Positions 1 to 15,928 of a stretch of 32,000 bases of DNA are shown piece by piece. Location: positions 1-32,000 of the forward strand of contig OY969902.1 of assembly GCA_963704435.1 (NCBI GenBank), read 5' to 3'. The notes below the pieces were generated by a model. That model saw only the letters and a list, made by a program, of their open reading frames with translations. It made no database searches and was not told the DNA's origin. A program made the translations under genes and the position numbers. Each line of letters opens with the position of its first letter. Within the stretch, counting starts at the first letter, position 1. This stretch comes from an uncultured archaeon (GTDB lineage Archaea; Micrarchaeota; Micrarchaeia; Micrarchaeales; CABMGC01).

Positions 1-16
1 TAGGGACTTGACAAAT
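1..16. repeat. Left terminal inverted repeat of the IS
   Basis: TAGGGACTTGACAAAT; pairs with the reverse complement of 1044-1059 at 13/16. Confidence 0.6.
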
Positions 17-114
17 TTTAAGTCTTTGCACCCAATATGATTTCGGGGGTTTTCTCTTCTCTTTTTATCGTCGGGAAAATAAGGTCGTGAGTCTCCTGGA
101 CGGCCGATACGTCA

Positions 115-1011: not shown

Positions 1012-1043
1012 AGGGGTTTGTATTTGACGAGGTGACTGAATGT

Positions 1044-1059
1044 AAATGTCAACTCCCTA
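1044..1059. repeat. Right terminal inverted repeat of the IS
   Basis: AAATGTCAACTCCCTA; its reverse complement TAGGGAGTTGACATTT matches 1-16 at 13/16. Confidence 0.6.
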
Positions 1060-1168
1060 ATAGAGCAAGGGCGGAACAAAACAAATAAGAACTCCCATGA
1101 CATTAATTACTTGCTTGAATAGCCTACTGTTCTATGCTCGACGCCTGCGTTATCTTTGGTGGCAATGG

Positions 1169-2326
1169 ATGAACTCCTATTTTATCACGCGAGGAGACAT
1201 AAACCTGATGAGCACTAGCGGCTGCGAGATAGAGGCGTATGATTTTACCGAATTCTTTATGGAGCACGACAGAAACGCGGAGATATTAAAAGCATACACC
1301 TTCGACTTGTTCTCGCATAAGCTAAGGCCGTGGCATAAGACCTATAAGAAGAGGTACCGCTTGGTAAAGTCAAGAACGAATAGGTTCCTAAAGGTAAACT
1401 CCCCCCTCTTAGGATATATGTTTATTCATCTCAAAGATTTACCTGACGGGATAATTTATTTCCCATACTCATTCTACGACTATCTGTCAAACATATTCCT
1501 GAAGCGCAAAACGCAGATATTCGTGTTTGCGGGGCATTGCCTTGAGATGCGTACGAAATATCGCACGCTGCGTGGAATCATAAACATCTTTGTCAAGATC
1601 GCATTTAAACTTAATAAAGATACGATATATTTTCAGGCAATCAATTCAGAGCAGAGAGAGTTTGTGCTAAAACTAGGGCTTCCGAAGGAGAACATATTCG
1701 ATATACCTGTTTATATCTTTCCTGGAACGTCGTTTAAGGAGATGCCCCTTCTTCACAACAATTCCAAGAAGCTCAAAGTCCTGCACATCGGAGGGACCAG
1801 CAAGAACTCGATTTTTCTGACTGAGATTTTTGACAAATTAACAGAAGCAAATGAGCTTGACCAGTATGAGTTTTATCTGATGGGAACTAGACAGCCGGAT
1901 GAAGTCGTCCGCTACTCAAAGAAGTACGCGAACGTGAAGATTCTCGGCTACGTAGATGACGTGGAGAAGATCAAGTACCTCCGCCAATCTGATGTCGTAG
2001 TAGTGCCTGCGAATGAGACCTTCTCAACTGCTGCCATTGAGGCCATGGCATGCGGACCCATAGTTATCTCGCAGGAAAATCCAGCAATCAAAGACATGAG
2101 GGACCTGGGTGCTTATCTCTTCATTGTCAATACGAATGATCCTGCCGCATTCATAACCGCATTTGATAAGATAGCGGATCTTAAGAAGTCACCAAAAATT
2201 CTTAATAAGCTCAGACTTGAGAACCAGCGTATCTGCAAAGAGAATTATTCCAGCGAGGTCGCCCTAAGAAAGATGAAGGACCTGTTTGATATTGCCGCAT
2301 CTAGATATAACGATAGGCACGGCTGA
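1169..2326 (+). CDS. Glycosyltransferase, GT-B fold, GT4-like (E-x7-E)
   Basis: E-x7-E motif ETFSTAAIE followed by AMACGPIVIS; KVLHIGG block. The track ORF starts at 1097, but I moved the start to ATG 1169. The N-terminus MNSYFITRGDINLMSTSG aligns with MDIHFLVRSNVRMIGSSG, the N-terminus of the paralog at 12639. Confidence 0.8.
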   Translation: MNSYFITRGDINLMSTSGCEIEAYDFTEFFMEHDRNAEILKAYTFDLFSHKLRPWHKTYKKRYRLVKSRTNRFLKVNSPLLGYMFIHLKDLPDGIIYFPYSFYDYLSNIFLKRKTQIFVFAGHCLEMRTKYRTLRGIINIFVKIAFKLNKDTIYFQAINSEQREFVLKLGLPKENIFDIPVYIFPGTSFKEMPLLHNNSKKLKVLHIGGTSKNSIFLTEIFDKLTEANELDQYEFYLMGTRQPDEVVRYSKKYANVKILGYVDDVEKIKYLRQSDVVVVPANETFSTAAIEAMACGPIVISQENPAIKDMRDLGAYLFIVNTNDPAAFITAFDKIADLKKSPKILNKLRLENQRICKENYSSEVALRKMKDLFDIAASRYNDRHG

Positions 2327-2338
2327 TTAACGAAGATC

Positions 2339-3205
2339 TTATTCAGTCCTATCCTGTTTCTGAAGTCTGAGCCATTTCGGGAGGTCAGGGCGTATCCTCC
2401 TCATCGTGTAGAGGTCTGTCTCGCTCAGTTCGGCCCCCCTAGAATTGAAATTCTTCCAGTCGTCATGAGCCGCACTTATGAGTTTTCCAGTTAGGCCATC
2501 AGACGCTCTGGATGCCAGAAACACGACTAGGCTTGCCGGCAGCTCTAACGGGATACTTCCAGAACCAAGCGCATTTCCAGATGTCACAGGATCTTTCCTA
2601 CCGATGGCCTCAGAAATCTCCTGGTTTATCTTTGTAAGGATCTTTCCCGGAGCAACAGCATTAACATCAATTCCCTGCTGCCGGACTTCCTCCGCGAGCG
2701 TCTCCGTAAACCTGATTATTGCCGATTTCGAGGAAGCGTAAGCCGAAAAGTTAATCCAGGGCCCTTCGCCCGCTCCGGCTATGTTAATGATTTTCCCGTA
2801 GCGTTTTTCAATCAGAGTAGGCAATACTGTCCGCGTGCAGAGGAAAGTGCCTATCAGGTTGACTTGGATGGTCCTTATCCAGTCCCGAACTTTGACCTGG
2901 CCCGTAAGCCCTATCGGTCCAATTATGCCTGCATTGTTAACAAGAATGTCGATAGTTCCGAATTTGGACAGCGCCAGCTGGACCATTCTTTTGACATCCT
3001 CCTCCTTTGAAACGTCTCCTTTAAACGTAACGATATTGTCCTTAGGAAGCCCCGTCTCTCTCGCAACAAGTTGAAGTTCCCCCATTGTTCGCGACGCAAG
3101 CAGCAACTTTGCGCCATCCTTCGCCATAGCGATAGCAATGGCCCTTCCCAATCCTCTGCCGCCTCCGGTAACGATTGCAACCCTTCCTTTGAGCTTCATG
3201 CTCAT
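2339..3205 (-). CDS. Short-chain dehydrogenase/reductase (classical SDR)
   Basis: TGGGRGLG (TGxxxGxG cofactor motif), NNAG, and a Ser...YASSK (YxxxK) catalytic set. A roughly 40-aa C-terminal extension follows. The substrate is not inferable. Confidence 0.85.
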   Translation of the reverse strand: MSMKLKGRVAIVTGGGRGLGRAIAIAMAKDGAKLLLASRTMGELQLVARETGLPKDNIVTFKGDVSKEEDVKRMVQLALSKFGTIDILVNNAGIIGPIGLTGQVKVRDWIRTIQVNLIGTFLCTRTVLPTLIEKRYGKIINIAGAGEGPWINFSAYASSKSAIIRFTETLAEEVRQQGIDVNAVAPGKILTKINQEISEAIGRKDPVTSGNALGSGSIPLELPASLVVFLASRASDGLTGKLISAAHDDWKNFNSRGAELSETDLYTMRRIRPDLPKWLRLQKQDRTE

Positions 3206-3223
3206 AATTCATCGCCATTTCTC

Positions 3224-4579
3224 TTACGGCTTAGCCCTTTTCGCCAGCCCAGATTCCTCGTTAGCCTGCCCCCTTCCCACCCCAACATAGAGAAAGCCGC
3301 AGGCGGCCATCTTGTCTTTGTCTAGCATGTTCAGCGGGTCTATGATTACTGGGTGCGACATCCTGGATTTAAGCTTTGCAAAGTCGAGGTCCCTAAACTC
3401 TGGCCATGCAGTGAGGAAAAGCAGTGCATCTGAAGAGTCAGCGACAGAACCCGCATCAGCGCACCTCTTGAAATTAGCTTCCCTCGTCATGTCGCTGAGA
3501 TCCGCCTGCGGGTCGTAAGCCTTGATTGACGCTCCTTTTCTAACAAGCCCCGCGATTATATCGATGGAAGTGGAGTGCCTAACGGCGCTCGTGCCGGGCT
3601 TGTATGCAAGACCAAACACTCCTATGCGCAACCCTCTGACCTTGCCAAAGATTTGCTTGAGCTTATTTCCGACTATCAGGTTCTGGCTGACATTCACGCG
3701 CATCATTGAGTCGAGCAGGGTAGTCTCAACGCCATTCTTCTTCCCCAGCTCCCTAAGGACGTTCACATCCCTTTCCAAGTGCCCGCCCCCGAAGCCGAGT
3801 CCAGGGCGCAGGAGCGCGTACTTCCCTATTCTTGGGTCTAGGCGCAGCGCCTCGACTACTCGGAATGCGTCTATTCCTAGCCCGTCGCAGAGGTTGCCGA
3901 GCTCATTCGCCAAGCTTACCTCGCACGCAAGGAATGCGTTTACTGAGTGCTTCACCATCTCCGCCGTCCTGAGGTCGACCTTTATCTTCGGTGATGTGAC
4001 GAATCTGTAGATCCGTTCGGCCTTCTTGATATCCTTACTGTTGGTGCCTCCAATCACTAGAAAATCGGGTGATTTGAACCGCGCAATTGCATCACCAAGC
4101 TTAATATTTTCAGGGACGCAGACGATCCCTAAGTCAAGCGCAGGCCTCCTTCTCTTGACTAATGCCCTTATCTGCTCGCATGTGCCAACCGGAACCTGGC
4201 TGCTTACGACCAACAGAGTACCGTTACGGAGGTAAGGAACGGCCCTTGTTATGCTTTGGAGAATGGGCGACAGGTCCGGCAAGCCATTCTCCTTTACCGG
4301 CGTGTCAAATGCGATGGCCACGTAGCCTGCGCCAGCCAATCCAGAGCGGAAGTCGGACGTAAACGAGAGCATGCCTTTCCTTTCCTGCTCCTTGACGAGC
4401 TTGGCCAGCCCTGGCTCCTGGACGGGAGGGATTCCGTTCCTGAGCCTTGAAATGGTCTCGGGGTTTGGGTCGATGCCGACCACGCTGTTGCCGCATGCGG
4501 ACAGGCAGGCTGCAGTAACTGTTCCGAGATGCCAGAGTCCAATTACAGCTACATTCCCCTCTTTATCGATGCCTTTCAT
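3224..4579 (-). CDS. UDP-glucose/GDP-mannose dehydrogenase-family protein, divergent (canonical catalytic Cys position is His)
   Basis: 451 aa with the three-domain layout of nucleotide-sugar 6-dehydrogenases. Family-like blocks include AEMVKHSVNAFLA, GLGFGGGHLERD and GLAYKPGTS. The N-terminal dinucleotide motif reads IGLWHLG instead of GxGYVG. The active-site motif reads GGGHLERD instead of GG(S/x)C(F/L)PKD. Confidence 0.75.
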   Translation of the reverse strand: MKGIDKEGNVAVIGLWHLGTVTAACLSACGNSVVGIDPNPETISRLRNGIPPVQEPGLAKLVKEQERKGMLSFTSDFRSGLAGAGYVAIAFDTPVKENGLPDLSPILQSITRAVPYLRNGTLLVVSSQVPVGTCEQIRALVKRRRPALDLGIVCVPENIKLGDAIARFKSPDFLVIGGTNSKDIKKAERIYRFVTSPKIKVDLRTAEMVKHSVNAFLACEVSLANELGNLCDGLGIDAFRVVEALRLDPRIGKYALLRPGLGFGGGHLERDVNVLRELGKKNGVETTLLDSMMRVNVSQNLIVGNKLKQIFGKVRGLRIGVFGLAYKPGTSAVRHSTSIDIIAGLVRKGASIKAYDPQADLSDMTREANFKRCADAGSVADSSDALLFLTAWPEFRDLDFAKLKSRMSHPVIIDPLNMLDKDKMAACGFLYVGVGRGQANEESGLAKRAKP

Positions 4580-4695
4580 GCAAACCTCTCATACAAATAT
4601 CGAAATACGTTATTTATCTATTTATGTCATTTATATAACAGTATCAACTCTCGGCCGTAAGGGCACAGAATAGAAGGGTTGACGAGGTAGAGATT

Positions 4696-5673
4696 ATGGC
4701 GAAATTCGCGGTAACGGGAGGCGCAGGACTTATCGGAAGTCACGTCGTGAAAGGATTGATTGATAAGGGACATGATGTGTCGATTATCGACAACTCCTCG
4801 TCAGGATCCGTCCAGAACCTTAAGGACCTGGGCGTTGATCAAGAACCCATTAGTGGCGACTTGAAGGATTATGGTTTCACGAGGGATGTGTTGAAGGGCG
4901 CAGATACCGTATTTCACTTCGCTGCAGAAGTGGGGAGCGTAGCCTATCTCCACGGCTCAAAAGCCAAGGAGCTGACCACCTGGCTGACGAACTCTACGAT
5001 AGACGCGAACGTGTTCAAGGCATGCCTCGAGAATAATGTGGGCAGCATAATATACGCGTCGAGCGCCGCGGTATATCCCTTGGACCTGCAGTTCGGCGCC
5101 GATGTGCAGTTCAAGGAAGAGGACTCAGAGCTCAGAACAAATCCCGACGGGGGATATGGCTGGGCAAAGTTCGTAGCAGAGAAGCAGCTCGCGATGATGC
5201 CCGACGTGCCTTCCGGAGCCGTACGCATGTTCAACGTATACGGAGACAACATCTACCTCAAGGAGGACAGGAGCCCTGTGATAGGATCTCTAATCAGAAA
5301 GGCGATAAACTATCCCAAAGAGGATTTCGTGGTTTGGGGAGACGGGTCCCAGAAAAGGTGCTTCGTGTCCGTTGACGATGTCATCGATGCGCTCTTTAGG
5401 ATTCACGAGCATGTGAAAAGTAAGGGAAGCCTTACCGTAAACGTCGGCTCTACCGATGAAATAAACGTGGGCGACCTTGCGCGGACCATAATAGCCATAT
5501 CCAAGAAAGACATACCTTTGAAGTTCGATACGAGCAAGCCCTCAGGCACGCTCAATAGGATGCCAAACATTGACCTGGCCAAACAGGTCCTTGGCTGGGC
5601 TCCGAGCACGAGCATGGATGAAGGGCTCAGGAAGACATATGCTTGGGCCGAGAAGCGCCTTGCAAAAGGCTGA
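4696..5673 (+). CDS. NAD-dependent nucleotide-sugar epimerase/dehydratase (extended SDR)
   Basis: VTGGAGLIGSH (GxxGxxG), a YGWAK (YxxxK) catalytic pair, about 325 aa as is typical of extended SDRs. A GAGGT Shine-Dalgarno-like element lies just upstream. Confidence 0.85.
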   Translation: MAKFAVTGGAGLIGSHVVKGLIDKGHDVSIIDNSSSGSVQNLKDLGVDQEPISGDLKDYGFTRDVLKGADTVFHFAAEVGSVAYLHGSKAKELTTWLTNSTIDANVFKACLENNVGSIIYASSAAVYPLDLQFGADVQFKEEDSELRTNPDGGYGWAKFVAEKQLAMMPDVPSGAVRMFNVYGDNIYLKEDRSPVIGSLIRKAINYPKEDFVVWGDGSQKRCFVSVDDVIDALFRIHEHVKSKGSLTVNVGSTDEINVGDLARTIIAISKKDIPLKFDTSKPSGTLNRMPNIDLAKQVLGWAPSTSMDEGLRKTYAWAEKRLAKG

Positions 5674-5710
5674 GTGCGCTGCCTGTTGGGTAATTGCGTC
5701 TAATTCCCAA

Positions 5711-6397
5711 TCATATCTTCTCGAGATTCAGGCATGCTACAGAATTCGTCACAGAATCGAACTTGGAACTCGCTGCTTGCAATTCACCCACTTTGCTTAT
5801 CTTCGTGCGGGACTTTATCTGGTAGAATTCCTTGCTTAATACTCTGAAGCCCTTAAGCAGCTCTGCCAGATCTTTGCTGTCGTAGACTCTCTGGAAGTTA
5901 TCTCTCACTTGATGCATTCCACACGGCGCAGTGAATATGAACTGGCCTCTTGGTTTCAGCAGTCCGTGCACCTTCGCAACAGCTTTCTTGTCCGCATCGA
6001 GGTCATACTTAGCGTTGCCGTAGTGGAACAGGCCAAAGTGCTCTATGGCGCTGATGTTTATTGCAATGTCGAATTTCTTTTGAAAATAGTATTCAAGGAA
6101 ATCCGCTCTGATGAATTCAAGGTTATCGTGCTTGTAGTTGTACTCCTGCATATCTATCCCAGTCACGGCATATCCCAGCGCAGCAAGCCTTACGGGGTTT
6201 ATGCTTTCGCTGCATCCGATATCTAATACGCTAAGCGGAGGAGGACGCAGGTTCTTGAAAAGGAAGGGGATCTCGACGATCCTCTCGCTGTAGTACGCGG
6301 CTGTCCATGGCAGGTGGCCATAGCCTTCATTTACTATGTAGCCTTTCATAAAGCGATTGCAGCCAGCACTCCATGCCTTGCCAAATATGCTCATCAT
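5711..6397 (-). CDS. Class I SAM-dependent methyltransferase
   Basis: Motif I VLDIGCSES, followed by an acidic post-I residue in VTGIDM, then a FDIAINISAIEH motif II/III-like block. Confidence 0.7.
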   Translation of the reverse strand: MMSIFGKAWSAGCNRFMKGYIVNEGYGHLPWTAAYYSERIVEIPFLFKNLRPPPLSVLDIGCSESINPVRLAALGYAVTGIDMQEYNYKHDNLEFIRADFLEYYFQKKFDIAINISAIEHFGLFHYGNAKYDLDADKKAVAKVHGLLKPRGQFIFTAPCGMHQVRDNFQRVYDSKDLAELLKGFRVLSKEFYQIKSRTKISKVGELQAASSKFDSVTNSVACLNLEKI

Positions 6398-6489
6398 AAC
6401 GCCTCTCTTACCCTAACACAGCAGGTTACAAATTTTTCAATGTGCATCTACCTGATATGGATTTATGGCATTCAGTTCTTTAATCTTCA

Positions 6490-7215
6490 CTAAAGATTTT
6501 TCATCTTTGCATAGAGATAGCCTGTCTGTGCCTTTCTATCATCTATGCTGGCGCACGGGCTAGTATGAGAGACGGCGAATCCGAGATTTTTAAGCTTCCT
6601 CTCGATATTCAGATATCCTTGGTGATACTCCATCACTATTCTGTCATATTCCGCCAGTCTCTTTGCATTGAGTATGATCTCATACTCGCAGCCCTCGCAG
6701 TCGATTTTCAGCTCTTTCAATTCTCCTTTGAACTCTTCGGCGAACTCGTCGACGGTCCTGCTCGACGCCGCCTTGTTGAAGAGCTTCGCGTTGGTTATGC
6801 CATTCAGAGAGAGGTTCTTCCGTGCAAGCAGATACCTTTTCTCATCCGGGTCATAGGAGTGCAGCGCCTTGGCCCCTTTTAGGGAGAAATATATTGGGGT
6901 GTCTCCGTTTCCGGTGCCTATGTCGAGCACGGCTTTGCCTTTCGATTCTAGCCAGCCATATGCTTGGCGGACAAAGACCTCTTCGTAATCGACATCGCCT
7001 GTGAATAGCAGGGGCTTGCCGCCGTAGTCTCCATTGTTGAACTCGACCTTCGTTATCTCTCCGTCAACCTCCACCCTGACTTTGCCCAGGGCATTCATAC
7101 GGGGAGATCTTGGAAATAGCTTAAGCTTGGCTAAGCCTGCGTAATGGAGCAGAATCGGTTTTGGGCTGATTCTAAGCCTGAGATAGTCGAGTTTTGTTAT
7201 GTTGGCCATCCGCAT
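6490..7215 (-). CDS. FkbM-family methyltransferase
   Basis: VLDIGTGNGDTPIYF (SAM motif) and LKIDCEGCEYEI (the FkbM-type K-x-D-x-E-G-x-E block). The track start at 7254 is a GTG. ATG 7215 is preceded by GGAGG 5 nt upstream and is preferred. Confidence 0.75.
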   Translation of the reverse strand: MRMANITKLDYLRLRISPKPILLHYAGLAKLKLFPRSPRMNALGKVRVEVDGEITKVEFNNGDYGGKPLLFTGDVDYEEVFVRQAYGWLESKGKAVLDIGTGNGDTPIYFSLKGAKALHSYDPDEKRYLLARKNLSLNGITNAKLFNKAASSRTVDEFAEEFKGELKELKIDCEGCEYEIILNAKRLAEYDRIVMEYHQGYLNIERKLKNLGFAVSHTSPCASIDDRKAQTGYLYAKMKNL

Positions 7216-7278
7216 ACTCCTCCGTAATACGCCTGCCTGATTCCTCCGGTTCACTTAACCTATTTTACCGTGGAAAAG

Positions 7279-8007
7279 TCAAAGGGTGTAGCCCGAGGCT
7301 TTCGCGTCATCATAGAACATCTGCACTGTTTCAAGTGAGTATTGGGTCAGGTCCTTCCCGAATAGCGCGAGCTGCTTCTGGATGTCCGGCGTGATCGTTA
7401 TGATGTGGCAGCCGCTCTCCGCAGCCTGTCTTACATTCAGGACCTCCCTCGGGCTGGCCCACAGGACCTCCGATAGGGGATTGGAGCTCATTATCTTGAC
7501 CATTTCTCTCGCTACTTCCATAGGGTCTACACCAGCATTTGCAGCGCGCCCAGCGAAGTACGAGACTATGCTCGGGGTGTCGTGGGAGAGAGCCTTCGAT
7601 ACTGCGATGACCTGATCGATAGTAAGTATGGCGGTGATGTTCAGCATAAGGCCATCGTTCGACAGTTCTTCTATAAGTGGCGTAGTGCTCACCCCTTTCG
7701 TATTAGTGATAGGTATCTTTACGTAGATGTTCTCGCCCCAGCTCGATATCTTGCGCGCCTGCCTCCCCATCTCCTTGAGTTCGTCGGAGATGACCTCATA
7801 GGATATTGAGTACTCCTTAGGTATGGCGTCTCTCATGGACTTGGCGAACTCCTCATAGTTGGCCACACCCGCCTTCCGCATCAGGGTCGGGTTTGTCGTG
7901 AATCCGCTGACTACTCCATCGTTGATCGCAGCCAGCATTTCCTTCGTGTTCGCTCCATCAGAAAACAGTTTTATTCCATATTGCGTTGTACCGCTCATTC
8001 GTTTCAC
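7279..8007 (-). CDS. Transaldolase / fructose-6-phosphate aldolase family protein
   Basis: KLFSDGAN...GFTTNPTL N-terminal signature and a YVKIP Schiff-base lysine block. It is the last gene of the heptose operon and plausibly supplies sedoheptulose-7-P. Confidence 0.8.
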   Translation of the reverse strand: MKRMSGTTQYGIKLFSDGANTKEMLAAINDGVVSGFTTNPTLMRKAGVANYEEFAKSMRDAIPKEYSISYEVISDELKEMGRQARKISSWGENIYVKIPITNTKGVSTTPLIEELSNDGLMLNITAILTIDQVIAVSKALSHDTPSIVSYFAGRAANAGVDPMEVAREMVKIMSSNPLSEVLWASPREVLNVRQAAESGCHIITITPDIQKQLALFGKDLTQYSLETVQMFYDDAKASGYTL

Positions 8008-8022
8008 CTTGTAAGCATGTTA

Positions 8023-8616
8023 TTAGTATGGTCTTTTCTCATTCTTAAGTATTATGTCCGCAGCGTCAGCCAGGTCCCTAGCCATGAAATCCGGCTTGCT
8101 CTGTCCGCGCTTGTGCGCAGACCTTGGCTCCTCTATAAGTATTGTCCTAGTTCCCGCTGCCTTCCCTGCCTCGATGTCGCTGTCCCTGTCGCCCACCATC
8201 CAGGAATCCGGAAGGCTGACGCCATGCTCTTTCTCTGCCTTAAGGAGCAGGCCGGGCTTCGGCTTGCGGCAGTCGCACGGGCCGGAGTATTCCGGAACCA
8301 CGCCCTCGGGGTGGTGGTAGCAATAGTAGTACGCGCTGAAGCGTATCCCTTGGAATGTCAGTTCCAAGTGGAGCTTATTCTGCACTGCCTCCAGAGCTTC
8401 CAGCGATGCGAATCCCTTTGCGTAGTCGGGCTGGTTCGATACGAGGAACAGCGAGTAGCCTGCGCTCTGGATTCTCCTGAGCGATGGAATCGCGCACGGG
8501 AATAGCCTAAGCTCATCGGGATTGAAAGGAGGGCCGTAATCCTTCATTGAGGGGCGCAGCACCTGCTCGTTTATTACTCCGTCCCTGTCCAGGAAAACGG
8601 CTGTGGCACTTCGCAT
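8023..8616 (-). CDS. gmhB: D-glycero-D-manno-heptose 1,7-bisphosphate phosphatase (HAD-IIIA)
   Basis: HAD motif I FLDRDGVIN, VSNQ, GDRDSDIEAG. The GmhB-typical Cys/His zinc loop is present: YCYHHPEG...GPCDCRKPKPG. The operon context supports the call. Confidence 0.8.
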   Translation of the reverse strand: MRSATAVFLDRDGVINEQVLRPSMKDYGPPFNPDELRLFPCAIPSLRRIQSAGYSLFLVSNQPDYAKGFASLEALEAVQNKLHLELTFQGIRFSAYYYCYHHPEGVVPEYSGPCDCRKPKPGLLLKAEKEHGVSLPDSWMVGDRDSDIEAGKAAGTRTILIEEPRSAHKRGQSKPDFMARDLADAADIILKNEKRPY

Positions 8617-8629
8617 TAGCTCACTTGTC

Positions 8630-9262
8630 CTATTTCGTGCTCTCCCACTTCATCTCAAACTTTTGCAGGTCTGGGCTCGATACGAGCATGTGCCATATGA
8701 CCCCCTGGTAGGCCTCGGTGTGCGGCGTTACGGTCGCGTCATTCACGGTTGGGATTATCACGCAGGCATCCGCCACCTTCGCAGTGAAGCCTCCATCGCG
8801 CCCGACTATCCCCATGACGCTGGCTCCGACCTCTTTCGCGTATTTCAGCGCCTCTACGAGGTTTGGGCTGACGTTCTTCTCGGCGTTTCCGCCTCCGACA
8901 GAGAGCACGAATACGGCGTCCTTGTCGTTTAGCTTGCTTCCCCTGAGCCAGTTGACGAATACGCTGGCCCAGCCGTCGTCGTTTACCCTGGCGGTCAGCT
9001 CGGAAGCGTTGTCCGTAGGCGCGTAGGACTCGGTTCCCGTTATCTTCCTGAGGTCGTTGACCATGTGCGATGCGTTGCCTGCGCCCCCTCCTACGCCGAG
9101 TATGAACACCCTGCCTCCTCTCTCCCTCACCTTGACGAGCTCGTCGCTGACCCTCATTATCTGCGCCAGCTCAAGCTTTTCAATAATCCTGACGCAGTCG
9201 CCAAGATAAGTCTTGATGTGCGCTTCCTGCGCCGCATCTCCCTTTTGGTTAATGGTATCCAT
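8630..9262 (-). CDS. gmhA: SIS-domain phosphoheptose (sedoheptulose-7-phosphate) isomerase
   Basis: SIS motif RVFILGVGGGAGNASHMVNDL, size about 200 aa, located between the gmhB-like and heptose nucleotidyltransferase-like genes. Confidence 0.75.
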   Translation of the reverse strand: MDTINQKGDAAQEAHIKTYLGDCVRIIEKLELAQIMRVSDELVKVRERGGRVFILGVGGGAGNASHMVNDLRKITGTESYAPTDNASELTARVNDDGWASVFVNWLRGSKLNDKDAVFVLSVGGGNAEKNVSPNLVEALKYAKEVGASVMGIVGRDGGFTAKVADACVIIPTVNDATVTPHTEAYQGVIWHMLVSSPDLQKFEMKWESTK

Positions 9263-9276
9263 GTCATTCCCTATCT

Positions 9277-9975
9277 CTATTGTCCCTTCAAGCGTAAATA
9301 CTGCTCGGTCTCCTTTATTCCCTGGAACGAACCGACCTCATGGAACCTCGTAGTGACCTCGAAAGCAGCCATATCTCCATTCACAGCCAGCCTCCCATAC
9401 ACGTCGCTCAGGTCGAGTGGACCATCCGGCCAGCCATCGAGCACCCTTTTCGTAAGGATGCTGATCCCGTAGTCGATGTACTCCATGTCCGTAGTGGGGT
9501 TCCTCTTGCTGTGCATTACTATCCTCCCGTCCCTCACCAGCGTGTTGTTCCTGTGCGATCCGCCGCTGTTGCGATACACAGTAAGCAGCGCCTGTTTACC
9601 CTCCGCCTCGAACCTATCCAGCATCGGCTGAAGGTCCACATCAAGGTACGAGTCGCCGTACATCACGAAGAACGCATCCGGAAGCTTTGGCGCGGCCTTC
9701 CTGAGCGCGCCACCCGTACCGAGCAGGACGTCTCCGTCGTATGAATACTGCACCCCCAGGCCCCACTCGTGTCCATCGCCCACGTACTCCTCTATCTGTT
9801 TCCCAAGATTGCCAACGCAGAGCACGATTTCCGATACGCCTTTGCCTTTGAGCAGCGTGAGCTGGTGGAAGATGAATGGCTTCCCCGCGACCTCGACCAT
9901 CGCTTTCGGAGTCTTGTCGGTCTGCGGTCCGAGGCGCGTGCCCATACCTCCAGCGAGAATCGCTACTGGAATCAT
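9277..9975 (-). CDS. hddC: Sugar-1-phosphate nucleotidyltransferase, likely D-glycero-alpha-D-manno-heptose-1-phosphate guanylyltransferase
   Basis: N-terminal ILAGGMGTRLGPQTDKTPKAMV (the LAGGxGTRL signature). The start codon overlaps the upstream kinase stop as ATGA at 9972-9975. Confidence 0.75.
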   Translation of the reverse strand: MIPVAILAGGMGTRLGPQTDKTPKAMVEVAGKPFIFHQLTLLKGKGVSEIVLCVGNLGKQIEEYVGDGHEWGLGVQYSYDGDVLLGTGGALRKAAPKLPDAFFVMYGDSYLDVDLQPMLDRFEAEGKQALLTVYRNSGGSHRNNTLVRDGRIVMHSKRNPTTDMEYIDYGISILTKRVLDGWPDGPLDLSDVYGRLAVNGDMAAFEVTTRFHEVGSFQGIKETEQYLRLKGQ

Positions 9976-10958
9976 GACTGCGTCACCACTCTGCTCCCCT
10001 CGGAGTCGAAGTTGAAGTGCAGCTCGGGCAGGCCCGCGCCCGCCATCGCGCGCCTTAGACTGACGTTGTCAATGGCATAGAACATCAGGAAACCACCCCC
10101 TCCCGCGCCTATTAGCTTGCCTCCGCGTGCGCCGTTCTTCAGTGCAATCCTATACCATTCGTCTACCTTGCCGTTGCTGATCTCCTTAGAGCGCTGCCTC
10201 TTGTGCTCCCAGTGGACGTTCATTAGCTCCGCGAACAGGTCGAGGTCTCCGGATTCGAGCGCGTCCCTGCTGTCGTAGCCTAGCTTCTTGGTGAAGTGCA
10301 GGTTGTCGATCATTGCCGTGTCCTTGCTCTTGCTCTTGTCGTCCTGGTCCTTCAGCACCGCGGATGCCGACCTCGAGAAGCCTGTGAAGAAGAGCAGAAG
10401 GTTATCCTCTAGGCTGTGGCGCGTGTCCTCGGAGAGCCTGAGCGGCCTGACATCCACGGTGTCGTCCCTGCGGAAAGTGAAGCAGTTTATCCCTCCGAAC
10501 GCCGAGACATATTGGTCCTGCTTTCCCACTGGCTCCTTGAGCACATCTATCTCTATGTGACACGCCTCCTTCGCAAGTTCAGCCGGAGTCACGGAGTCCC
10601 TTTTGTGGGAATGCAATGCCTTTAGCATGGCGCACGCGAAGCTCCCAGATGATCCCATACCCGTGCCTGCCGGCACGTCCGCGATGCTCACTATCTCAAG
10701 GTGCGGATTCGGTATGTTCACAAGATTGAGCGCTTCGCGCACTATCGGATGCTTGATCTCGCCTACGGAGGCAACGCGTTCCATCTGCGAGTATTTCACT
10801 ATGATCTCATCCCTGCTGAAGATCGGCTGCACCGCCACGTACACGTACTTGTCTATGGCCGCGGAGATCAGGAACCCCTCGTGCTCCCTGTAATAAGACG
10901 GAAGGTCCGTGCCTCCTCCCCCGAGGGGGACGCGGAGCGGGCTGCGTGCTATGATCAT
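9972..10958 (-). CDS. hddA: GHMP-family sugar kinase, likely D-glycero-alpha-D-manno-heptose-7-phosphate kinase
   Basis: RVPLGGGGTDLPSYY N-terminal block and the GHMP motif PAGTGMGSSGS. It is the first gene of the operon, with a TATA-like box 36 nt upstream. Confidence 0.75.
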   Translation of the reverse strand: MIIARSPLRVPLGGGGTDLPSYYREHEGFLISAAIDKYVYVAVQPIFSRDEIIVKYSQMERVASVGEIKHPIVREALNLVNIPNPHLEIVSIADVPAGTGMGSSGSFACAMLKALHSHKRDSVTPAELAKEACHIEIDVLKEPVGKQDQYVSAFGGINCFTFRRDDTVDVRPLRLSEDTRHSLEDNLLLFFTGFSRSASAVLKDQDDKSKSKDTAMIDNLHFTKKLGYDSRDALESGDLDLFAELMNVHWEHKRQRSKEISNGKVDEWYRIALKNGARGGKLIGAGGGGFLMFYAIDNVSLRRAMAGAGLPELHFNFDSEGSRVVTQS

Positions 10959-10993
10959 TATCTCATCTCTTAATTGCCGTTTGTCTTAGCTAC

Positions 10994-11001
10994 TATATAA
11001 A
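10994..11001 (-). promoter_or_regulatory. TATA-box candidate for the heptose operon
   Basis: The minus strand reads TTTATATA, about 36 nt upstream of ATG 10958, in an A/T-rich divergent intergenic region. Confidence 0.45.
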
Positions 11002-11115
11002 CATAATTCGAGAATTGGGACGTTTGTCCTATTTTCCGCTACTCACCAATCAATTTAGTCTCGTCCAAAGCCTTTTCCGAGCGCTTTTGTGTTGTACGGA
11101 TATATTTGCAATAGC

Positions 11116-11123
11116 TTTAAAAA
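11116..11123 (+). promoter_or_regulatory. TATA-box candidate for the methyltransferase at 11152
   Basis: TTTAAAAA about 29 nt upstream of ATG 11152. It lies downstream of the track's GTG start at 11089, which argues for the shorter ORF. Confidence 0.4.
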
Positions 11124-11151
11124 TGCGGGCAGAGAAATAAAAACGATTAGA

Positions 11152-11853
11152 ATGGAGCACATAAAAACAGGCAATTCGGCGTTAAATACGGTCCTAAACT
11201 ATATCCTGGATCCGGTTTTGTCACCAATAAAAACAAAAGAATATGCGCGCATAAAGCCCAATGAACGATACAGGGAAGAGTATAATTCAATTCTCACAGA
11301 AATAGCGCCATATAAGAAGCAGGCTTGGGAGGGGCTTTTTACTAGGCTGGATGCTTCACTAACAAATGCTGCCGCATATTATGTATACAGTCTGGTGAGG
11401 GGAGAGAAGCCAAAAATAGTGCTTGAGACGGGGATATTCTCCGGGTTCTCCAGTGCCATAATACTATCTGCATTGAACAAAAATAGGAAGGGTGAACTAT
11501 ACAGCACGGACGTATTCCAAGAAGTCGGGTTGGCAACACACCACGTAGATAAGGCCCGGTGGCACAAATGCATCGGGAAACCAGAATCCATATTCAAAGA
11601 AACGCTACGCGAAATAAACGGTCCGATCGACATCTTTCTCCACGACAGCCATCATGACTTCAAGTACATGTGGTATGAGTTAAGCGCCGCGCTTCCAAGA
11701 ATGAATCCCAACGGCTACATGCTGTGCGATGATGCGCATTGCAATGACGCTTTCTTGAAGTTCTGCAGAGTAAATGGATTCAAAGCAGAGATGATCTACA
11801 GTCCAGCCAAGCCCCTAGGCGTGATAAGGCTAGGCCTGAAGAAAGATGAATAG
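11152..11853 (+). CDS. Class I SAM-dependent methyltransferase (O-methyltransferase/CmcI-like)
   Basis: IVLETGIFSGFSSAIILSAL (motif I), LYSTDV (acidic loop), and DIFLHDSHH...YMLCDD. The start is set at ATG 11152 rather than GTG 11089 because of the TATA position. Confidence 0.65.
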   Translation: MEHIKTGNSALNTVLNYILDPVLSPIKTKEYARIKPNERYREEYNSILTEIAPYKKQAWEGLFTRLDASLTNAAAYYVYSLVRGEKPKIVLETGIFSGFSSAIILSALNKNRKGELYSTDVFQEVGLATHHVDKARWHKCIGKPESIFKETLREINGPIDIFLHDSHHDFKYMWYELSAALPRMNPNGYMLCDDAHCNDAFLKFCRVNGFKAEMIYSPAKPLGVIRLGLKKDE

Positions 11854-11875
11854 AGGTGTCAAGTCCTGGGCGGGC

Positions 11876-12520
11876 TTACTTTGTAGCGTAGAGATAGCCA
11901 ATCCCCTTGCCTGAGCTCTTGGTCCTAAATCCGCTGCGCTTAAGGATGGGCTCCACCTCGTTCAGCGTGTTGTGAACCTCGACCTGCATCGCGTATACGT
12001 CGGAGAGGTCAGGCCTTGCCCTAAAAATGGACAGCTCCGCGCCCTCCACGTCGCATTTTATGGCGATGCGCTTTCCTCTAAAGCCATCCAACAGCGACTG
12101 CAGGGTCACGGTCCTGATGCCAGATTCCGCAAGCACCGTCCTGTTGAACCCGGTGGCATAGGGATGCGACATTCTGGAGAATCCCTCGCTGCACGAGACC
12201 GCGACCTGCATGGTCTCTATCTTCTTTATCGGGCACTCGGAGACGTTCTTCTTCAGCAGCACATAGCTCGCAGGGTTCGGCTCGATTGCGATGACCTTCT
12301 TCACGTTCGGGTTCATGGCGAAGTAAACCGACGTGTCTCCTATCATGGCACCGATGTCTATCAGCACGGTGTCTTTCACGATCCTGTCGTAGAGCCACTT
12401 GTAAGCTTGCTTCATGAACACCTCATCGAGGTGCCCGTACAACTTCACCTTCTGCCTCATGGTAGTGATCCCATTCCACAGCGCGATTGGGTGCCGCACA
12501 AGGCCCAGGTCCTCTCTCAT
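11876..12520 (-). CDS. FkbM-family methyltransferase (second copy of the family)
   Basis: VLIDIGAMIGDTSVYF and IAIKCDVEGAELSIF blocks, collinear with the FkbM-like protein at 6490-7215. Confidence 0.75.
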   Translation of the reverse strand: MREDLGLVRHPIALWNGITTMRQKVKLYGHLDEVFMKQAYKWLYDRIVKDTVLIDIGAMIGDTSVYFAMNPNVKKVIAIEPNPASYVLLKKNVSECPIKKIETMQVAVSCSEGFSRMSHPYATGFNRTVLAESGIRTVTLQSLLDGFRGKRIAIKCDVEGAELSIFRARPDLSDVYAMQVEVHNTLNEVEPILKRSGFRTKSSGKGIGYLYATK

Positions 12521-12638
12521 GAAATCCTCGGATAAATCTTGGGCAGCCAGCTATTAAATATGGATGCCATGCCTCTCGGCAGTCTGCGACCGCAAACAAT
12601 AATTAGATGAACCACCAAATGGAATCAAGGTCAGTGCG

Positions 12639-13772
12639 ATGGACATACATTTTCTTGTGCGCAGCAATGTTCGGATGATAGGTTCAAGCGGCACCGAGGA
12701 CCAGACCTACTACTACGCTAAATTCTTGAAAGATCGTGGGAAGAATGTCGATATGCTAATGGCATATTCCTTTGGCACCTTCACAAAACTGAAGCCAGAC
12801 CACAATACCTACGACAGGTATGCCTCTCTGAAGGAGAGAAGGATAGGGTTCATCAAGATAAGGACCCCCATACCCCTGTTCTCGCTGGTCTATCTCCGCG
12901 GCCTGCCCGATGGCATAACTTATGTGCCCTATTCGTTCTATGACTACCTGCTCAACCTGGTCTTCAAGCGCAAGGCCCAGATCATCGTGTTCGGCGGGCA
13001 CTGCCTGGAGGTCCGCACGAAATATCCTGTAATGCGTGGAATCATAAACCTCGCAGTGCGACTTATCTTCAGGCTCAGAAGCAACGAGATCTACTTCCAT
13101 ACGATAAACCTCGCGCAGAAGAGATATCTCATGAGGCTCGGGCTTCCAGAGAAGAATATTTTCTATGTGCCTAATTTCATAGACTACAGGGATGTGCCAC
13201 TTCTTGACAGCCGTTCAAAGAAGCTCAGAGTCCTGCACATTGGAGGGGTGAGCAAGACATCGGAGTTCCTACCTCAGATTTTTGACAGGCTTATTGAGAA
13301 GGGGGAGTTCGCTAGGTTCGAATTCTGCCTTGTTGGATCTAAGCAGCCTCTTGAAGTGATAGAATATGCAAAGAAGCACAAGAACGTAAAGGTAATGGGC
13401 TATGTAAGCGAGCGAAAGAAGTACTCGCTCCTTAGGAGCGCCGACGCGCTGATAATAGCGTCACAGGAGACCTTCTCGATAGTGGCGCTAGAGGCCCTGG
13501 AGTGCGGTCCGATAGTCATATCGCGGCCCAATCCTGCAGTGGAGATCATGAAAGATCTAGGCGCGCGCCTATTCCTGCTCTCCGACGATGAGCCCGATAG
13601 CTACGTTGGCGCGCTCCATGAGGTGATGCGCCTGAAGGAAAACCCCCGGCACATGGCATCGCTCAAGTCTGTGAACAAGCACGTGTGCGAGAAGTATTTC
13701 TCCAGCGGAAACGTCCTGCCGCAGATTGCAAAGCTGTTCGACACTGTGGAAAAGAGGGCTTCTGGGCGCTAA
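12639..13772 (+). CDS. Glycosyltransferase, GT4-like, paralog of 1169-2326
   Basis: E-x7-E motif ETFSIVALE followed by ALECGPIVIS. It is collinear over its full length with the 1169-2326 product, with roughly half the residues identical by eye. One example is LPDGITYVPYSFYDYL against LPDGIIYFPYSFYDYL. Confidence 0.8.
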   Translation: MDIHFLVRSNVRMIGSSGTEDQTYYYAKFLKDRGKNVDMLMAYSFGTFTKLKPDHNTYDRYASLKERRIGFIKIRTPIPLFSLVYLRGLPDGITYVPYSFYDYLLNLVFKRKAQIIVFGGHCLEVRTKYPVMRGIINLAVRLIFRLRSNEIYFHTINLAQKRYLMRLGLPEKNIFYVPNFIDYRDVPLLDSRSKKLRVLHIGGVSKTSEFLPQIFDRLIEKGEFARFEFCLVGSKQPLEVIEYAKKHKNVKVMGYVSERKKYSLLRSADALIIASQETFSIVALEALECGPIVISRPNPAVEIMKDLGARLFLLSDDEPDSYVGALHEVMRLKENPRHMASLKSVNKHVCEKYFSSGNVLPQIAKLFDTVEKRASGR

Positions 13773-13848
13773 TGCGAGCTCGCTGCGCGGGCGTTCTGCC
13801 CACCACACAAGATAAATACGCGCTGGCGAATATTAATGGCGTGATGCT

Positions 13849-14922
13849 TTGGATTCAAGGTTCATAGGGCTGGGACTGGCTGCTCTCGAGAACAACTTCG
13901 TGAGCCTCAGCCACCCGTACAAGCTCACCTTCGCGGTGACCTACAGGTGCCAGTCGAAATGCAGCACCTGCAACATATGGCAGAAGAAGCCAGAAGGCGA
14001 GCTCTCCCTAGATGAGATACGCAAGTTCGCACAGAAGAACCCCCACTTCAGGTGGATAAGCATAACTGGCGGCGAGCCCTTCCTGAGAAGCGACATAGTG
14101 GAGATAGTCGAAGCGTTCATGAAGAGTTCCAAGGGCCTCTACATAGTGACGATACCTACCAATTCGCTGTCGAGCCTGGATCTGCTTCTGAAGAGGGTAG
14201 GGGGCATCCTCGACCTAGGAATGCCGAACCTGACGATAACGGTAAGCCTCGACGGGTACCGCGAGCTCCATGACAGGATAAGGGGAGTGCCCGGCGCGTA
14301 CGACAAGGCGATCGCTCTCGCGCGGGCGCTACACGAGATGCAGAAGGGGCGCGGCAACCTCCTATGGGCTTTCGGCTACACGATAAGCAGGCACAACGTC
14401 GGGATGCTCGAGAGGACCTACGAGGAGGTCCGCAGGGAGCTTCCGGGCCTAAGGTACGATGACTTCCACGTCAACGTCGCTCAGACGTCCGAGGTCTACT
14501 ACAACAACGTCAACCTCGAGCTTAAGGCCGAGAAGGGCGAAATCGCCAAGGAGCTTAGGTCGTTCATTAGGAAGAGGAAGGGAGGGACCGATGCGGTATC
14601 GCTCCTTGAGGGCGTCTTCCTGAAGAAGCTCGTCCAGTACGTGGAGACGGGCAAGGTGCCCATCCGGAGCAGGAGCCTCGACGCGTCGCTTTTCCTCGAC
14701 AGCCAGGGCAACGTCTTTCCCTCGATAATGTGGAACAGGAGGATAGGGAACCTAAGAGAGACGGGATACGACCTGAAACCGCTCCTGAAGAGCGCGGAAG
14801 CCAGGACCGTGAGGGAACTCATAGGCAGGGGCGAGGAGCCGAGCGCGTGGACTGCCTGCGAGGCGTACCAGTCGATAGCCGGCAACCTGCCGAGCTTCGC
14901 GAGCCTGCTTCTCCCGCCCTAG
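13849..14922 (+). CDS. Radical SAM enzyme
   Basis: CQSKCSTCNIW (the CxxxCxxC [4Fe-4S] motif) followed by ITGGEPFL. Only one further Cys is present, so no SPASM-type auxiliary cluster is evident. The start is a TTG at 13849; the alternative is GTG 13900. Confidence 0.8.
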   Translation: MDSRFIGLGLAALENNFVSLSHPYKLTFAVTYRCQSKCSTCNIWQKKPEGELSLDEIRKFAQKNPHFRWISITGGEPFLRSDIVEIVEAFMKSSKGLYIVTIPTNSLSSLDLLLKRVGGILDLGMPNLTITVSLDGYRELHDRIRGVPGAYDKAIALARALHEMQKGRGNLLWAFGYTISRHNVGMLERTYEEVRRELPGLRYDDFHVNVAQTSEVYYNNVNLELKAEKGEIAKELRSFIRKRKGGTDAVSLLEGVFLKKLVQYVETGKVPIRSRSLDASLFLDSQGNVFPSIMWNRRIGNLRETGYDLKPLLKSAEARTVRELIGRGEEPSAWTACEAYQSIAGNLPSFASLLLPP

Positions 14923-14977
14923 CGATATCACGTCCTTTATATTACTAATATACTAGTTCTAACGGAACGGCTTTACC

Positions 14978-15685
14978 ATGGAGACGTATGGCGATATAAC
15001 TGTCATCATCCCGACGATCAATGAGGAGGGTACGATAGGTCTGCTCGTCAGGCGCCTCCTCTCCATGTACCCCCAGATCAAAGTGATCGTGGTGGACGAC
15101 GGGTCCACCGATGGAACGAAGCAGAAGATAGCCACCCTCGCCTCGAAAAGCCGCGGAGTGAGCCTCTACGACAGGAAGGCGCTCGAGCTCCCTAAGGGCC
15201 TCGCTTACAGCATGATGGACGGCGTGAGGATTGCAAGGACGAAGTACGTGGTGTTCATGGACGGCGACCTCCAGCACCCGCCGAAGGTCGTGGGGTCCAT
15301 CGTGCGCAGGCTGCGCGACGGATATCCCATCTCGATAGCGGTAAGGGCCAAGACCTACAATCCGGTGCTCTATCGCGCCATAATATCGAGCGTCCTCTCG
15401 GTGATCGGCCGGTCCGTGCTCTGGGCCGAGGGCAAGGCCTCGAGCAGGGACATCTTCTCGGGTTACTTCGGCGTCGACGCCGCATATGCGAGGGGGGTTA
15501 TGAAGCGCGACCGGAAGAGGTTCGTCGGGGAGGGCTACAAGTTCCTGTTCGACCTCCTAAAGTGCGTTCCAAAGGGAGATGCGCGCATCGCGGAGGTGCC
15601 GTACCTGTTCGTGGTCAGGCGGTTCGGCTCGTCGAAGGCAGACGTAAAAGCCGTAATCGAGCTGATGAAGTCGTACCTTTCCTGA
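14978..15685 (+). CDS. GT2 glycosyltransferase, dolichyl-phosphate hexose synthase (Dpm1)-like
   Basis: ITVIIPTINEEGTI, VVDDGSTDGT, and FMDGDLQHPP (DxD plus the QHPP block typical of polyprenyl-phosphate glycosyltransferases). A TATA-like CTTTATATT lies about 35 nt upstream. Confidence 0.85.
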   Translation: METYGDITVIIPTINEEGTIGLLVRRLLSMYPQIKVIVVDDGSTDGTKQKIATLASKSRGVSLYDRKALELPKGLAYSMMDGVRIARTKYVVFMDGDLQHPPKVVGSIVRRLRDGYPISIAVRAKTYNPVLYRAIISSVLSVIGRSVLWAEGKASSRDIFSGYFGVDAAYARGVMKRDRKRFVGEGYKFLFDLLKCVPKGDARIAEVPYLFVVRRFGSSKADVKAVIELMKSYLS

Positions 15686-15928
15686 TTCGATTTCATCGCC
15701 TAAGGATACCGCCTCTATATAATGTAATATATATTGCGGTCGAATAGGCTGTAAGTGGCAATGTGGGCAAAGACTTGCGTGCAGAGGCAAAGGGCGCCAG
15801 CGGGACTCGCTCCGATACGGCGGCAGGGACCCAGATTGGCGCTCCGTCGAGAGACTTAGGCTATAGAAGAAAGCGACTACAACAATTGACGAAGTTTTTG
15901 TGCCGCGACGCAGACCAGAACAGCAACA

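Follow-up and report, generated by a model that had tools for sequence, protein, structure and literature searches.

Results

A putative transaldolase-primed cassette in a micrarchaeal glycan locus

The first 32,000 nucleotides of contig OY969902.1 (hereafter the window), from an uncultured archaeon of the Micrarchaeota, carry on the minus strand a cassette of five genes for a GHMP sugar-phosphate kinase, an RmlA-fold sugar-1-phosphate nucleotidyltransferase (NT), a SIS-fold isomerase, a HAD-IIIA phosphatase and a short transaldolase (TAL). The reading favoured here, to which about an even chance was given, is that the cassette constitutes an LmbR-type, transaldolase-primed route to an NDP-octose for the N-glycan of the S-layer protein, and such a product was judged somewhat more likely than a heptose. 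In the proposed route, TAL would transfer a C3 unit from fructose-6-P (F6P) to ribose-5-P (R5P), yielding octulose-8-P, which the SIS isomerase would convert to aldo-octose-8-P. The GHMP kinase would phosphorylate C1 of the octose, the phosphatase would strip the terminal phosphate and the NT would yield the NDP-octose. A Cys-less UDP-glucose dehydrogenase (UGDH)-like enzyme, a short-chain dehydrogenase/reductase (SDR) and epimerases of the surrounding island would then tailor the sugar and methyltransferases would decorate it, before glycosyltransferases and an AglB-like enzyme attached it to the S-layer protein. In this route we infer R5P as acceptor, and with it the number of carbons, as well as the nucleotide, the tailoring steps and the target of the glycan. 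GDP would be a plausible nucleotide, with hints from a GDP-mannose 3,5-epimerase (GME)-like gene of the island and from the precedent of the guanylyltransferase LmbO. The broader proposition, that the surface glycans of this Micrarchaeon and of the bacteria and methanogens with the cassette contain a true C8 aldose built from F6P and R5P, is more tentative and falls somewhat short of an even chance.

The five genes, their order and strand, and the ATGA at 9972-9975 in which the kinase stop overlaps the NT start, were confirmed by the list of open reading frames (ORFs) and by Pfam exactly as the sequence-only reading had described them. The other intergenic gaps in the cassette were 13-15 nt, and the TAL gene starts with GTG at 8007, with an ATG present at 7998.

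Precursor supply in the symbiont and in methanogens

The transaldolase route to sedoheptulose-7-P (S7P) combines F6P with erythrose-4-P (E4P), and the known source of E4P is transketolase. The TAL had earlier been taken as the supplier of S7P for a heptose pathway, a role that the genomes did not bear out, since no transketolase was found in this genome or in five cassette carriers of a methanogen order. In this genome the cassette TAL was the sole TAL/FSA-family (PF00923) gene, the search for transketolase matched only the alpha and beta subunits of 2-oxoacid dehydrogenase E1, and no RpiA, Rpe or PRPP synthase was detected. The ORF 470067-470717 was considered as a source of R5P on the strength of a match to the RpiB family (39 bits) and was rejected, as the catalytic C-G-T-G motif was missing. 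The 216-aa protein (G000:C1:470067-470717) carries AKDPIGAG at the motif site and a long charged tail, and is probably not an isomerase. This absence of pentose-phosphate enzymes agrees with Ca. Micrarchaeum harzensis, for which a single pentose-phosphate gene was reported (PMC8975820).

A symbiont may import its precursors, so free-living carriers were examined. Transketolase was absent from 4 of 5 archaeal cassette genomes (G001-G005), including the complete chromosome of Methanospirillum stamsii, and RpiA, a source of R5P, was present in all five. Among the four without transketolase, the cassette TAL was the only TAL in G002, G003 and G005, and G004 has a second TAL of the cassette type. 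This second gene, in a Methanoregulaceae genome (G004:C1:1384136-1384804), lies far from the first cassette and may represent a second copy of the system. We then considered 151 genomes sampled from the order of M. stamsii; their five carriers share only G002 and G003 with the set above. A cassette-type kinase was detected in 5 of the 151 genomes, all five without transketolase and with a single TAL located 2-4 kb from the kinase; a high-scoring TalC-type TAL was detected in nine genomes, eight of which also contained transketolase. DHQ synthase II was present in all five carriers and DAHP synthase was found in none, so that their aromatic amino acid synthesis would be E4P-independent. In this genome and the five methanogen-order carriers, no E4P source was found, though one of another kind is possible. 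Since enzymes that are 60-70% identical should share their chemistry, and since some hosts appear to be free of E4P, the chemistry of the cassette should be E4P-independent. R5P would be the obvious alternative acceptor for the TAL, giving octulose-8-P.

Conservation of the cassette

Loci were collected through the kinase alone, and 80 were compared. All five genes were collinear on one strand in 48 of them, spanning a median of 3.6 kb, an arrangement far from chance. Where 1.5 kb or more of sequence followed the phosphatase gene, TAL was missing from only 2 loci, and in 4 planctomycete loci its place was taken by a different TAL type with 28-29% identity. Retention in nearly all loci together with replacement in place indicated that the TAL is integral to the cassette and not a mere neighbour. 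The loci with the other TAL belong to Planctomycetota/Gemmataceae (L044, L049, L061 and L066, plus L079, which is without the NT gene) and represent a non-orthologous replacement with the activity kept.

Kinase relatives of 60-71% identity were found in Methanoperedens, Methanospirillum, Methanoregula and Gammaproteobacteria (including Coxiellaceae and Legionellales), as well as in Planctomycetota, Chloroflexota, Acidobacteriota, Verrucomicrobiota, Mycolicibacterium and others. Compared with the Methanoperedens locus L001, the identities of the kinase, NT, isomerase, phosphatase and TAL were 68, 61, 72, 65 and 61%, respectively. In these relatives the genes 5' of the kinase usually encode an epimerase/dehydratase, a UGDH-like protein, an SDR (present there in 54 of the 80 loci) and a Gfo/Idh/MocA oxidoreductase, which makes the widespread unit one of nine to ten genes, and in Methanoperedens a flippase-like gene precedes these upstream tailoring genes. 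Two loci were interrupted: about 1 kb of extra DNA lies between the isomerase and phosphatase genes of M. stamsii (L002 9714-11892), and an insert of about 4.7 kb, including a radical-SAM-like gene, lies between the NT and isomerase genes of an Elusimicrobia genome (L034 8972-13668). No description of a TAL-linked heptose or octose glycan cluster was found in the literature searched. Among archaea, at least one Thermoplasmatales host already has annotated canonical GmhA, GmhB and HddA genes.

Family assignment of the cassette enzymes

The families were assigned by the curated equivalog cut-offs of NCBIfam, by Pfam and by sequence matches in the PDB; neither the PDB nor NCBIfam contains any Lmb protein. 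The TAL alone among the five proteins passed a curated family cut-off (TIGR02134, 307.7 bits against 281.95), and its best PDB matches were the transaldolases of Thermotoga (1vpx) and Thermoplasma (3s0c) at about 1e-20. D17, N39, E71, K97, N123, T125, S149, F151, R154 and R187 were invariant across 51 TAL sequences, K97 being the Schiff-base lysine. FSA-type aldolase chemistry was considered for this protein and ruled out by Glu71 and Phe151 in place of Gln and Tyr; judged by these residues, the active site is TAL-type, not FSA-type.

The other four proteins, which the sequence-only reading had labelled as heptose enzymes, each scored far under the cut-offs for HddA, HddC, GmhA or GmhB. The best NCBIfam match of the kinase was HddA (NF049969) at 159.2 bits against a cut-off of 600, and its best PDB matches were WcbL (4usm, 4e-48) and HddA (4n3o, 2e-36), with galactokinase far behind (2.5e-9). 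For the NT, the HddC model NF049965 gave 73 bits (cut-off 300) over residues 6-118 only, below the score of the best match, MurU (110 bits, cut-off 250), and of mannose-1-P guanylyltransferase (87 bits). In the PDB, MurU (4y7t, 1e-24) was likewise ahead of HddC (6jq8, 3e-15), which matched the N-terminal half only. The isomerase scored 48-49 bits against GmhA models with cut-offs of 209 (TIGR00441) and 320 (NF010547), and its PDB matches were exclusively GmhA, with 1tk9 the best at 3e-14. The phosphatase reached 127.7 bits with the GmhB model NF006506 (cut-off 178) and 112.3 bits with TIGR00213 (cut-off 149.6); it passed the HAD-IIIA and histidinol-phosphatase domain models and matched E. coli GmhB (2gmw) at 5e-27. 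Grouping with hexose-specific or other non-heptose enzymes would have spoken against the heptose labels, and on this point the kinase fell on the heptose side, the isomerase did so weakly, and the NT did not, being nearer to MurU. The heptose label of the cassette was thus not secured by these comparisons. What did stand, on the fold assignments, was the type of pathway, in which a higher-sugar-1-phosphate would be activated by a GHMP kinase and an RmlA-like NT and not in the manner of HldE. Because the four proteins score below the heptose cut-offs and yet are 60-70% identical across domains, they form a distinct orthologous group.

The active sites were compared within this group. In the phosphatase, D10 and D12 of the DxD motif, N61, Q62, K118, D143 and D147 were invariant, and the zinc loop C99-x-H101...C114-x-C116 was retained in at least 39 of 42 orthologues. 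In the isomerase, H66, D70, E183, Q186, H191 and the loop S121-V-G-G-G-x6-S132 were invariant in 64 orthologues. A hand alignment to GmhA placed D70 at Glu65 and E183 at Gln172, with the catalytic His residues retained; by this alignment Asp replaces the catalytic Glu of GmhA, and the S-V-G-G-G-x6-S loop replaces the S-T-S-G phosphate loop. This invariable departure of the isomerase family from GmhA, at both the catalytic acid and the phosphate loop, was counted for an octose as product.

Comparison with known pathways

The closest likeness was found in the lincosamide GDP-octose route of Streptomyces lincolnensis and S. caelestis. As set out in published accounts, that set consists of a transaldolase, an isomerase, a kinase, a phosphatase and an NT, followed by an epimerase, a dehydrogenase and an oxidoreductase (PMC4351081, PMC12945683). 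LmbR is reported to accept either F6P or S7P as donor, with R5P as the acceptor (PMC5854111), and formation of octulose-8-P was also reported for an ordinary trypanosome transaldolase (PMC5854111). In the lincosamide route the first five functions are those of LmbR (transaldolase), LmbN (isomerase), LmbP (kinase), LmbK (phosphatase) and LmbO (guanylyltransferase), and the later steps are those of LmbM (epimerase), LmbL (dehydrogenase), LmbZ (oxidoreductase) and LmbS. Compared by these descriptions of enzyme class, the cassette holds the same five enzyme types in one cluster with a dedicated transaldolase acting first, and like the lincosamide route it could proceed without transketolase. The likeness extends by class to the neighbouring genes of the relatives, whose cassette epimerase, UGDH-like protein and Gfo/Idh/MocA oxidoreductase parallel LmbM, LmbL and LmbZ; we take LmbL to be UGDH-like and LmbZ to belong to Gfo/Idh/MocA. 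The differences are also clear. The Lmb enzymes serve antibiotic secondary metabolism in one actinomycete lineage, whereas the cassette occurs in surface-glycan loci of many phyla and of archaea; where LmbS, an aminotransferase, would be expected, there is an SDR; the cassette isomerase is not fused to a carrier-protein domain; and the present genome is without a Gfo/Idh/MocA gene. The one Streptomyces locus (L155) among the matches listed by a degenerate high-GC pattern scan for the Lmb locus was rejected as a chance match with no TAL homology.

The GDP-D,D-heptose route shares the same four folds with the cassette, including a separate GHMP kinase and RmlA-fold NT, and supplies its nearest structures (WcbL/HddA, GmhA and GmhB). 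Different from the cassette, the classical pathway is without a transaldolase; moreover, the four proteins here fall below the equivalog cut-offs, the NT is nearer to MurU, Asp replaces the catalytic Glu of the isomerase, whose phosphate loop is also different, and this host is without a known route to S7P. The separate GHMP kinase and NT had been read as the hallmark of GDP-heptose synthesis. The five-enzyme set does fit a GDP-heptose route with an added TAL, but it is equally the lincomycin GDP-octose set.

The ADP-heptose route (GmhA, HldE, GmhB, HldD) resembles the cassette in its GmhA-like isomerase and GmhB-like phosphatase and differs in its PfkB kinase, which is fused to a cytidylyltransferase-fold enzyme. 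Coxiella burnetii lipopolysaccharide was considered as a chemical anchor and set aside, because the O-antigen locus has a different architecture, with the reversed-domain HldE-like protein CBU0678 (PfkB/adenylyltransferase). The TAL itself resembles the TIGR02134 "transald_staph" transaldolases of Staphylococcus and Coxiella, whose model cut-off it passes and whose TAL-type Glu/Phe site it shares. The founding members of that family are presumably housekeeping pentose-phosphate enzymes, unlike the TAL here, whose gene closes a glycan cassette and is the only one for a pentose-phosphate enzyme in its genome.

Octose versus heptose as product

The principal alternative is a GDP-heptose cassette, in which the TAL would be a private source of S7P from F6P and E4P; we regard it as rather doubtful, though a serious contender. 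It draws on the nearest characterised relatives of the kinase, isomerase and phosphatase, and on a TAL with a normal TAL-type site, a passed family model and S7P as its textbook product. The JGI label of the relatives, heptose-7-phosphate kinase, points the same way, as does the GME-like epimerase of the window with its hint of a GDP sugar. In two Micrarchaeota genomes with transketolase (G095 and G009), moreover, a TalC-type TAL stands beside a more HddA-like kinase. It has to contend with the missing transketolase here and in the five methanogen-order carriers, the latter also without DAHP synthase, and with four enzymes that miss the curated heptose cut-offs widely, the NT being nearer to MurU than to HddC. 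In addition, bacteria with a full pentose-phosphate pathway still retain the cassette TAL in nearly all loci, which is hard to explain if it were a mere duplicate of the housekeeping supply.

Several observations weigh against the octose route. Octose is, to our knowledge, a constituent of no cell-surface glycan, while heptoses are common in glycans, and the prior therefore favours heptose. The best matches of the kinase, isomerase and phosphatase were all heptose enzymes; this would be expected under either reading, because the libraries hold no Lmb models or structures. Genomes without transketolase made up 89% of the methanogen order sampled, so that the five of five carriers show compatibility with transketolase-free life, not enrichment. 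In G076, the one other Micrarchaeota genome with the same cassette, a transketolase gene lies about 2 kb beyond the cassette TAL, which suits a heptose. The symbiont is also without RpiA, Rpe and PRPP synthase, and its R5P too would have to come from the host or from salvage; with no route to either E4P or R5P there, the precursor argument rests mainly on the free-living methanogens. Finally, no Gfo/Idh/MocA homologue, the class that parallels LmbZ, was found in this genome.

Kinases of the Micrarchaeota and other possible substrates

An HddA-like kinase was detected in 70 of 301 sampled Micrarchaeota genomes, with a close orthologue (67%) in G076 alone. The remaining kinases fell into tiers of about 47-49%, 40-45% and 30-35% identity, and several of them lie in kinase/NT/SIS/HAD clusters of their own, some with genes for a TAL, a Cys-less UGDH-like protein and an SDR. 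The TAL genes of Micrarchaeota were mostly TalC-type and adjoined transketolase, the cassette type being rare. In G095 (G095:C11:68680-70325) and G009 (G009:C3:76205-77853) a TalC-type TAL adjoins a distant HddA-like kinase (32-34%), so that the adjacency of TAL and kinase recurs in separate kinase subfamilies. At the G076 locus (L094, G076:C1:50000-69500), another cluster with an HddA-like kinase lies 6 kb upstream of the cassette.

These tiers, at least four in number and several of them in one genome, suggest several products and bear on a further alternative, in which the cassette activates another sugar phosphate, the TAL acceptor being arabinose-5-P or an unphosphorylated aldose, or the substrate being a host-supplied ketose phosphate of C6 or C9 length. 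Sugar-phosphate metabolism is all but absent from the symbiont (cf. PMC8975820), which makes host-derived substrates likely, and the sequences are too far from characterised enzymes for substrate specificity to be read from them. An identity of 60-70% across free-living and symbiotic hosts, in contrast, favours a common substrate made from universal metabolites. We consider this alternative unlikely; no precedent for it is known to us.

In the kinase tree, the window sequence and G076 were placed in an unresolved basal group together with the methanogen/Methanoperedens clade, and not in the weakly supported clade (89/98) that comprised only bacterial sequences. Because the branch of the window kinase was long, its placement is unsure.

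The surrounding glycosylation island

The genome consists of one contig of 852,977 bp with a GC content of 0.555, and the glycan island runs across both contig ends (842-853 kb and window 1-15685). Its features are listed in Table 1.

Table 1. Features of the cassette and of the surrounding island (window coordinates unless marked as genome coordinates)
Feature	Coordinates	Strand	Length	Remarks
GHMP sugar-phosphate 1-kinase, HddA/WcbL-like (LmbP-like role)	9972-10958	minus	328 aa	cassette gene 1; Pfam GHMP_kinases_N/C
RmlA-fold sugar-1-phosphate nucleotidyltransferase	9277-9975	minus	232 aa	Pfam NTP_transferase
SIS-fold ketose/aldose phosphate isomerase, distantly GmhA-like (LmbN-like role)	8630-9262	minus	210 aa	SIS_2, 35 bits
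HAD-IIIA phosphatase, GmhB-type zinc loop (LmbK-like role)	8023-8616	minus	197 aa	Pfam HAD (Hydrolase_like)
Short transaldolase, TIGR02134 type	7279-8007	minus	242 aa	TAL_FSA, 136 bits
TATA-box-like element TTTATATA	10994-11001	minus		about 39 nt 5' of kinase start, within 130-nt divergent intergenic region
AglB-like oligosaccharyltransferase	842015-844531 (genome)			same island
Cassette-type epimerase	844645-845610 (genome, outside window)			42% identical to Methanoperedens epimerase
Gene without Pfam match	845729-846802 (genome)			followed by two GT4, GT2, FkbM methyltransferase, radical SAM/SPASM and GT4
Insertion sequence (IS) transposase	115-1011			island, after contig junction
GT4 glycosyltransferase	1097-2326			window
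Classical SDR oxidoreductase	2339-3205	minus		adh_short, 187 bits
Cys-less UGDH-family protein	3224-4579	minus		three UGDH domains
Extended-SDR epimerase, GME-like	4696-5673	plus		Pfam Epimerase, GDP_Man_Dehyd
Class I methyltransferase	5711-6397	minus		Pfam
FkbM-like methyltransferase	6490-7254	minus		Pfam; 24 nt after TAL, then 92-nt gap
S-layer protein	15979-19017	plus		PF05124 S_layer_C; 5 kb from kinase

The element TTTATATA is a putative promoter element of the cassette, and the two methyltransferase genes at 5711-7254 are possibly co-transcribed with it. Beyond the cassette follow two further methyltransferases, a GT4, a radical SAM gene, a GT2 and the S-layer gene. The final GT4 on the 842-853 kb side runs off the contig end and is 65% identical to the GT4 at 1097-2326; the contig break may lie within a repeat. 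At least five methyltransferase genes (three of FkbM type) and two radical SAM genes lie in the island, a gene content that suggests heavy methylation of the glycan. Stretches of methyltransferase and radical SAM genes occur at 5711-7254, 11089-12520 and 13849-14922 of the window and at 13996-15748 of locus L114. An archaeal Hjc resolvase is also encoded in the window. The placement of the cassette in an archaeal surface-glycan island near an S-layer gene, as proposed from the sequence, was upheld by PF05124 at 15979 and by the AglB-like gene of the island, and the S-layer protein is the probable acceptor of the glycan.

Different from the relatives, the tailoring module is not contiguous 5' of the kinase here, the SDR and UGDH-like genes lying 2.7 kb past the end of TAL. 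The SDR of the window was 36-46% identical to the SDR of cassette loci and 61-62% identical to those of two Micrarchaeota of the same family (G178 and G256). The UGDH-like protein has His at the position of the catalytic Cys (GFGGGHLERD, aligned to UGDH 4a7p). The cassette-linked homologues have Thr there, with the motif GGTLxRD in 46 of 46, and the nearest homologues, of G178 and G256 (57-59% identity), have GFSGGT(I/V)ARD. In G178 and G256 the homologues of both genes (57-62%) adjoin the TAL-kinase block, which argues that the genes at 2339-4579 belong functionally to the cassette though rearranged here. The SDR is probably a ketoreductase acting on a nucleotide sugar as partner of the Cys-less UGDH-like protein. 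The epimerase at 4696-5673 matched GDP-mannose 3,5-epimerase in the PDB (8sg0/2c59, about 2e-34) and was 27% identical to the cassette-type epimerase; it gives a weak hint of a GDP-linked sugar.

No paralogues of the five cassette genes were found in this genome. That the cassette NT might be its sole sugar nucleotidyltransferase was considered and proved false, as a second NTP_transferase gene is present (G000:C1:104296-105093); that protein is divergent (best match AglF, 48 bits against a cut-off of 400) and is encoded away from the glycan genes.

The rearranged upstream module and the missing Gfo/Idh/MocA gene, the IS transposase in the same island, and a close kinase orthologue in just 1 other of the 301 Micrarchaeota genomes would all suit a recently acquired, non-functional passenger in a reduced genome. 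This explanation was judged very improbable, because the five frames are intact with every catalytic residue conserved, the cassette GC (0.56) equals that of the genome, and the kinase is not nested among bacterial sequences, its long terminal branch suggesting long residence; an 853-kb genome would also be under strong pressure to shed useless genes.

Discussion

The sequence-only reading was partly supported by this work: the set and order of the genes, the type of pathway and the island setting held, the heptose labels and the supply of S7P were not supported, and an octose route had not been considered. In hundreds of genomes, database annotation assigns the cassette to GDP-heptose synthesis. 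Should its product instead be an octose, or anything other than D,D-heptose, an entire class of surface sugars would carry the wrong annotation; in the case of an octose, the lincomycin sugar pathway would have a widespread counterpart in cell envelopes, and this sugar would be the first of its kind in primary cell-surface metabolism. Occurrence of the cassette in cells without transketolase gives a simple and testable substrate argument, and the sugar chemistry is directly checkable in Methanospirillum stamsii Pt1, which is cultured and carries the cassette.

For the symbiont itself, the finding bears on a published view. The S-layer protein of Ca. Micrarchaeum harzensis is glycosylated, and the published conclusion is that this archaeon makes no activated sugars of its own and takes them from its host. 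The relative analysed here retains a complete activation pathway beside AglB and S-layer genes, which suggests that symbionts keep up production of only that rare sugar which their host is unable to provide. If the proposed route is true, its product would rank among the very few activated sugars that this host-dependent symbiont makes itself, and might even be the sole one.

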